Source: Escherichia coli (GTDB lineage Bacteria; Pseudomonadota; Gammaproteobacteria; Enterobacterales; Enterobacteriaceae). From it: a DNA stretch of 64,000 nt. Under the pieces are notes generated by a model. The model did not search any database. It was not told the origin of the DNA and saw only the letters and a list, made by a program, of their open reading frames with translations. The stretch lies in assembly GCF_003334255.1 (NCBI RefSeq), contig NZ_QOWU01000017.1; one strand, 5' to 3'. How positions within the stretch are numbered: position 1 is the stretch's first letter; each line of letters opens with the position of its first letter. The translations under genes were made by a program, and so were the position numbers. This document shows, in pieces, positions 54,976 through 55,551 of this stretch.

Positions 54976-55551
54976 ATGGAATACTTTGATATGCGTAAAA
55001 TGTCGGTGAATCTGTGGCGAAATGCTGCCGGTGAAACGCGCGAAATTTGCACGTTCCCACCGGCAAAACGTGATTTTTACTGGCGTGCCAGCATTGCATC
55101 CATCGCGGCGAATGGGGAGTTTTCTTTGTTTCCCGGCATGGAAAGGATAGTGACGTTGCTGGAAGGCGGCGAGATGCTCCTTGAAAGCGCAGACCGCTTT
55201 AACCATACCTTAAAACCGTTCCAGCCTTTTGCCTTTGCAGCGGACCAGGTGGTAAAAGCGAAACTGACGGCAGGGCAGATGTCGATGGATTTCAACATCA
55301 TGACACGCCTGGATGTCTGTAAGGCGAAAGTCAGAATTGCCGAACGTACGTTTACTACCTTTGGCTCACGCGGCGGGGTGGTGTTTGTGATTAACGGGGC
55401 GTGGCAACTGGGCGATAAATTGCTCACTACCGACCAGGGCGCGTGCTGGTTCGATGGCAGGCACACCCTGCGGCTTTTACAACCGCAAGGTAAACTGTTG
55501 TTCAGTGAAATCAACTGGCTCGCTGGTCATTCGCCGGATCAAGTTCAGTAA
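54976..55551 (+). CDS. ves: HutD-family protein Ves (191 aa from MEYFDMRK)
   Basis: ORF track; start adjusted to recalled length. Confidence 0.8.

Follow-up and report, generated by a model that had tools for sequence, protein, structure and literature searches.

The convergent 41-bp overlap of cho and ves in Escherichia coli: coding sequence, overlapping RNA and evolution of the junction

The excinuclease gene cho and the oppositely oriented gene ves share the last 41 bp of their coding sequences in Escherichia coli K-12. The reading that best accounts for the locus is that these are ordinary tail-to-tail genes, both real, with no terminator between them; very probably the coding overlap is a passive by-product, and the consequence of the arrangement lies at the level of RNA. 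The overlap itself is real but ordinary, being already catalogued and present in every E. coli annotation. As it stands, then, the finding is of little weight: it is annotated, it is catalogued, and 2 similar overlaps lie in the same 64 kb. What is new here are the evolutionary points, namely the apparent loss of a double stop, the seemingly passive character of the 2 tails, and the placement of ves between cho and a hairpin that in ves-less relatives lies directly 3′ of cho.

The locus, its promoters and its RNA 3′ ends

The window, by which we mean the whole 64,000-nucleotide stretch that was analyzed, belongs to the E. coli K-12 chromosome and corresponds to MG1655 1815913-1879912 read on the opposite strand. 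Identity to MG1655 is complete over window positions 48001-61547, where window x + genome g = 1,879,913; outside that range there is a 1-bp indel in the astC-xthA spacer (~47877), and the region of the chb operon has single-base differences at 61548, 62046, 62515 and 63919. The segment 54800-56700 is 100% identical to K-12 derivatives such as DOC14. In the annotated gene order, astE (52990-53958), spy (54288-54773, 161 codons) and ves (54976-55551, 191 aa, HutD family) are read on the + strand, and cho (55511-56398, 295 aa, GTG start, a GIY-YIG excinuclease) and nadE (56628-57455) on the − strand. Nearly all of spy is also spanned by an antisense open frame of 162 codons (54297-54785, −), which probably reflects the Lys/Glu-rich composition of spy.

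Both cho and ves are genuine, conserved protein-coding genes. The 1.9-kb cho-ves region is found in 5425 of 5426 complete E. coli genomes at 95-100% identity, with both genes annotated in the entries sampled, and orthologues at 80 enterobacterial loci are 65-98% identical. Ves matches the solved HutD structures 5fcc (E 1.6e-15) and 1yll, and the N-terminus of Cho matches the GIY-YIG domain of UvrC (1ycz, E 1.6e-8). Two E. coli strains show rearrangements nearby: in 675SK2 an IS1 between spy and ves parts ves from the spy hairpin, and in HCP4S3_I4 cho is cut by a Mu-like prophage carrying Mom/Com genes, the remaining 3′ 300 bp still overlapping ves.

The original prediction placed a convergent overlap of 41 bp at 55511-55551, with cho ending inside the 3′ end of ves, and both statements are correct. 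The ves stop is a TAA at 55549-55551 (+) and the cho stop a TGA at 55513-55511 (−), inside ves at 54976-55551, leaving 41 bp common to the 2 frames in a tail-to-tail arrangement. The RefSeq annotation is identical, both for a K-12 locus of the same sequence in our comparison set (L001; ves 2677-3252, cho 3212-4099) and for NC_000913.3 (cho 1823515-1824402, ves 1824362-1824937).

That cho is inducible by DNA damage is likewise upheld, and cho can be called a LexA-controlled SOS gene, though its LexA-dependent induction by damage rests on the literature. A LexA box, CTGGATAGATAACCAG, of the form CTG-N10-CAG, lies at 56429-56414 (−), ~31 nt upstream of the GTG start. The published cho start site mapped by SMRT-Cappable-seq (1823491 in NC_000913.3, window 56422) falls within it, and a box at the same position (~-31) is present in 77 of 77 enterobacterial loci. 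The box was read directly from the sequence and then checked exactly across loci; scanning the whole window with the LexA pattern and a tolerance of one mismatch returned 220 matches and was uninformative. Under its name ydjQ, cho appears in a published list of LexA targets whose SOS box is known (PMC6590174), and Salmonella ydjQ is reported as 3.3-fold up (PMC8072944). The SOS promoter is not the sole source of cho transcription, however, since transcripts from nadE read through into it. In the nadE-cho spacer (56399-56627), which holds a REP-like hairpin at 56550-56590 (−), 25 reads from the nadE start site end at the nadE 3′ end (TTS 1823351, window 56562) and 27 pass through. Published transcript mapping detects a nadE-cho operon, with about half of the nadE transcripts continuing into cho.

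On the other side, ves is a member of the sigma-28 (FliA) regulon, as established by a bound motif and by FliA-dependent expression. Its promoter, AACGTAAATCACCCGAGTTGCCGATAAC (54896-54923, +), matches letter for letter a published site of FliA binding in ChIP-seq (FAT 44), and ves expression falls from 18 in motile MG1655 to 0 in delta-fliA. The sigma-28 -10 element (GCCGAWAH) is kept upstream of ves in 51 of 56 loci. A promoter scan, which is a crude test, found no sigma-70-like promoter.

No terminator was found between cho and ves in the promoter/terminator scan, in which 5 terminator-like sites stand against 5.2 in shuffled sequence, so that the scan alone proves nothing. Term-seq tables for 1823300-1825199 (Adams 2021, PMC7815308) agree with it, however: neither ves nor full-length cho has a discrete 3′ end in them, and there is no 3′ peak between 1823784 and 1825060. 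The absent terminator is a real feature of the locus. Folding downstream of the ves stop gives a marginal z = -2.1 and no terminator shape. A stem-loop at 55465-55491 (−), with an 11-bp stem beginning 20 nt after the cho stop, was considered as a cho terminator and rejected, having no U-run and no Term-seq peak and lying within the ves coding sequence.

The only terminator-like site of the scan with experimental backing is the long hairpin after spy (54793-54853), where a spy-strand Term-seq 3′ end maps to 1825060 (−), window 54853 (Adams 2021, PMC7815308). It folds at -40.8 kcal/mol on the + strand and at z = -3.7 on the − strand, where it is followed by UCUUAAGUUUUUU. An A-run before it and a U-run after it make it bidirectional in form: both strands encode a hairpin plus U-run. 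For transcription on the cho strand it is the first terminator-like element, ~660-720 nt past the cho stop, and we infer that cho-strand RNA would end there. Term-seq has no cho-strand 3′ end at this hairpin (18251xx), a weak negative given that cho-strand expression is low.

Apart from the spy end, the only 3′ ends mapped nearby in the Term-seq tables are 2 Rho-dependent ones within cho itself (Adams 2021). One is at 56374 (−), 24 nt into the open reading frame (1823539 (+), Rho score 3.5), and implies an RNA of ~49 nt from the LexA-controlled start at 56422; the second region is at ~56129 (−), ~270 nt into the gene (1823784 (+), score 3.9). Premature Rho-dependent termination may be an extra layer of control on cho.

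Overlapping RNA and what it may do

Overlapping transcription of cho and ves is already known, from a list of excludons and from a data set of dsRNA captured with p19. In the ExcludonFinder study, cho-ves belongs to a set of 165 convergent excludons that recur in 50% or more of the 58 MG1655 transcriptomes (PMC12288877). The total-RNA counts of Huang et al. (2020, mBio) give cho 7.9 RPM sense and 19.2 antisense in the wild type, 6.4 and 22.0 in rnc-14, and 5.7 and 34.6 in rnc-38; antisense reads over cho are thus 2.4-6 times the sense reads. For ves the corresponding pairs are 156.7 and 4.7, 173.0 and 1.8, and 244.7 and 8.6 RPM. Expressed as density, ves mRNA exceeds cho mRNA ~30-66-fold in unstressed cells, and antisense over cho is ~8% of ves sense. 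Antisense over ves, at 8.2 RPKM, is close to cho sense, at 8.9 RPKM, in the wild type (ratio 0.44-2.3 over the 3 strains), which fits near-complete read-through of cho-strand transcription across ves.

The same study captured perfectly paired cho/ves duplexes of 21-22 nt with p19, and in dsRNA samples E and S counted 66-75 RPM for cho and 106-117 RPM for ves. Three such RNase III/p19 duplexes are located in its Table S3: a 21-nt duplex at 55718-55740, inside cho and ~170-190 nt past the ves stop; one at 55389-55411, inside ves and ~100-120 nt past the cho stop; and one at 55101-55124, in the 5′ part of ves and ~390-410 nt past the cho stop. Their span puts the RNA overlap at ~640 nt or more, against a coding overlap of 41 bp. 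From published data, then, the 2 neighboring transcripts overlap and yield RNase III-processed duplexes, which are 2 of the features of an excludon, the third being inverse expression of the 2 genes.

Antisense RNA to the end of ves upon induction of cho was the functional claim of the original prediction, and it is supported. Because the frames overlap, an mRNA for full-length Cho is necessarily antisense to the final 41 nt of ves, and the published reads and duplexes bear this out. For the same reason the translatable mRNAs of both genes must overlap, and transcript ends that do not overlap are unattainable for them. The claim was nonetheless incomplete, in that antisense RNA to ves is present without DNA damage, partly from nadE read-through into cho, and reaches over hundreds of nucleotides. 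Moreover, the stronger antisense flow in unstressed cells is from ves into cho, with 19-35 RPM antisense versus 6-8 sense on cho, and Rho-dependent termination within cho may keep part of the induced transcription from reaching ves.

The sequence of events that we favor is as follows. Polymerase from the sigma-28 promoter of ves runs past the ves stop into cho. On the other strand, polymerase that begins at the LexA-controlled start or arrives from nadE crosses ves, as the published reads and duplexes show, and probably continues as far as the spy hairpin. The complementary RNAs pair and are cut by RNase III, as the p19-captured duplexes show. The main antisense load in unstressed cells falls on cho, because ves is there ~30-fold more abundant, and SOS induction should raise antisense RNA over ves. 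Given the abundance ratio, any effect of SOS on Ves levels is probably small; the excess of ves RNA speaks against its strong silencing by induced cho through stoichiometry, although head-on transcriptional interference may act. There are 2 caveats. Part of the antisense RNA over cho may start at a promoter within cho that is not mapped, and not be ves read-through, and the maintenance of the convergent LexA/sigma-28 arrangement over many genera could reflect selected cross-talk and not neutrality.

Among the more ambitious interpretations, the one that fares best reverses the direction of the original prediction: read-through of ves, driven by sigma-28, would help to hold Cho low in unstressed motile cells, beside LexA and Rho. 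The excess of antisense over sense on cho, the rise of that antisense in rnc-38 (from 19 to 35 RPM), the duplex at 55718-55740 inside cho, the lack of a terminator after ves, and the FliA-dependent expression of ves (18 vs 0) all point this way. Still, cho sense RNA is flat in the rnc mutants (7.9, 6.4 and 5.7 RPM), which argues against RNase III-mediated repression of cho, and antisense over cho amounts to just ~8% of ves sense density. We regard this interpretation as unlikely.

Quite unlikely, in our estimation, is a switch in the other direction, triggered by SOS, in which induced cho would lower Ves through RNase III cleavage of the duplex, through head-on transcriptional interference, or both. 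The elements are in place: a universally conserved LexA box over the cho start site, cho-strand RNA that crosses ves and forms RNase III substrates, and a gene pair that falls within the RNA-seq definition of an excludon. Furthermore, inverse expression is reported for 20 E. coli excludons in cells exposed to antibiotics, mitomycin C and ciprofloxacin among them (PMC12288877), a figure for the group that is not specific to cho-ves. Against it, with ves mRNA ~30-66 times denser, an induction of cho by severalfold leaves the antisense RNA substoichiometric; the Rho-dependent ends at +24 and ~+270 of cho curtail cho-strand transcription; and the junction is evolutionarily loose, with ves not beside cho in Salmonella or Klebsiella. 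A search of the literature for a response of ves to SOS, under the names ydjQ and ydjR as well, turned up no report of repression or of any other response, and the supplement of a nine-antibiotic transcriptome study (PMC10100721) has no entry for cho or ves.

The most elaborate proposal joins both directions in a selected two-way excludon linking the sigma-28 program to SOS, with ves read-through as a third brake on Cho in motile, undamaged cells, beside LexA and Rho, and with cho transcription, once induced by damage, running over ves and its promoter up to the spy hairpin and shutting ves off. This we hold to be very unlikely. If it were true, the maintenance over many enterobacterial genera of a junction without a terminator, of the LexA box (77/77) and of the sigma-28 promoter (51/56) would be due to selection for cross-talk. 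More generally, should SOS-induced cho prove to silence ves, or ves to restrain cho, the pair would be a concrete example in a class with few demonstrated effects, and such regulation would offer a hint at the function of Ves.

Evolution of the junction

The explanation that we prefer, ordinary convergent genes with a passive coding overlap, draws on a comparison of the junction at 80 enterobacterial loci with Cho, in which both genes and their stops were located. In most genera cho and ves are convergent neighbors, and the junction varies between an overlap of 73 bp and a gap of 48 bp. The 41-bp overlap is that of Escherichia and Citrobacter. Enterobacter, Lelliottia, Leclercia and Silvania have 23 or 32 bp; Kosakonia and Phytobacter have 4, 7 or 15 bp, with the 2 stops fused as TTAA in Kosakonia; and a few other lineages have 45 or 73 bp. 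Gaps of 3-48 bp occur in Franconibacter pulveris, Pseudescherichia and some others, in some with an inserted palindrome or hairpin, and Cedecea has an insertion of 1.7-1.8 kb at the junction. At 2 of the loci (L047 and L053), a gap of 28-48 bp just after the cho stop is a perfect palindrome, e.g. GCCTGCCGT...ACGGCAGGC, which may represent the insertion of a small hairpin or of a terminator.

Beneath this variation are 2 conserved protein cores, which in E. coli end only 10 nt apart (55531-55540): Cho at ...YEIxEL (Leu286, codon 55543-55541) and Ves at ...WLPGH (His185, codon 55528-55530). Most Ves orthologues stop at ...WLPGH, and Cho orthologues stop 0-9 residues after ...YEIxEL. The E. coli proteins carry tails beyond these cores, DPANDQRAS (9 residues) in Cho and SPDQVQ (6 residues) in Ves, which are not conserved and, since they are missing from most orthologues, lie outside the conserved fold. 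The 41 bp accordingly fall into 3 parts, namely Cho tail over Ves core (55511-55530), tail over tail (55531-55540), and Ves tail plus stop over Cho core (55541-55551).

The comparison shows how the overlap arose. The junction of E. coli and Citrobacter is slightly longer than the TTAA of Kosakonia and lacks either stop; with the fused double stop lost through a short change, both frames extend to the next stop, giving 41 bp. Tails of 9 and 6 codons are unremarkable, because stop-free runs of that length are likely in random sequence (probability 0.65 for the Cho tail and 0.75 for the Ves tail). The length of the overlap is thus not above chance expectation once the stop codons are lost. Among the 16 sequences with the 41-bp overlap, 5 of 6 variable sites in 55514-55530 are at third codon positions of ves, a pattern that points to a Ves core kept while the Cho tail changes freely. 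The VQ-stop that ends Ves does not vary in these 16 sequences, being held in place by the conserved ..EL of Cho, whose codons it complements. Each tail therefore looks like a passive read-out of the core of the opposite gene, and the coding overlap, on these alignments, looks neutral. That it is an annotation artefact, one frame truly ending earlier, is hardly credible: the tails are indeed not conserved outside Escherichia/Citrobacter, where most orthologues end at the core, but the stops are unambiguous, there is no earlier in-frame stop, and the 41-bp overlap recurs in 15 further Escherichia/Citrobacter loci down to ~78% protein identity.

Convergent overlaps of this size are common in the window, where by annotation 3 of the 11 convergent coding pairs overlap, by 35-44 bp, and further pairs have spacings of 0, 8 and 21 bp among them. 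The other 2 overlapping pairs are ynjH (37779-38051, +) with nudG (38017-38424, −), which share 35 bp at 38017-38051, and nimR (4338-5159, +) with yeaL (5116-5562, −), which share 44 bp at 5116-5159.

The position of ves itself is variable. There is no ves beside cho in Salmonella, Klebsiella, Raoultella, C. sedlakii, Pluralibacter and others. Most genomes without ves have the spy hairpin just 3′ of cho, 1-25 nt past the stop (it is ~130 nt away in one and missing in a few), and in Salmonella, Klebsiella and Raoultella it directly follows that stop. In E. coli, ves is located between cho and this hairpin. The placement of the hairpin directly 3′ of cho in genomes without ves implies that ves is either a lineage-specific insertion or was cleanly lost several times.

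Comparison with known systems

The hairpin has its nearest counterparts in the bidirectional terminators of convergent genes (Ju et al. 2019; Wang et al., bioRxiv 10.1101/2022.10.23.513370), being likewise flanked by A- and U-runs and, in ves-less genomes, lying directly between cho and spy. Unlike those terminators, it is separated from cho in E. coli by the intervening ves, and its mapped 3′ end is on the spy strand only.

As an excludon, cho-ves resembles the other convergent pairs of ExcludonFinder, where it is entry ~68 of 165 (Sanmartin et al., NAR 2025, PMC12288877), in its short or absent intergenic distance, its overlapping transcripts, and the support from p19/RNase III duplexes. For relBE-ydfV, the worked example of that study, inverse expression is shown, whereas none was found for cho-ves. 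The closest parallels are within the window itself: nudG-ynjH (35 bp) and yeaL-nimR (44 bp) match cho-ves in layout and in extent of overlap, both are on the excludon list, and ynjH has a FliA promoter, as ves has. They differ from cho-ves in their other partner genes and regulators, neither including an SOS gene. An older relative is the flagellar excludon of Listeria monocytogenes, mogR / lmo0675-0677, reportedly the subject of work by Toledo-Arana in 2009 and Sesto in 2013. That system shares with cho-ves a long transcript antisense to the opposite neighbor and a flagellar program on one side; it has, however, a dedicated antisense promoter and demonstrated repression, where cho-ves has simple 3′ read-through.
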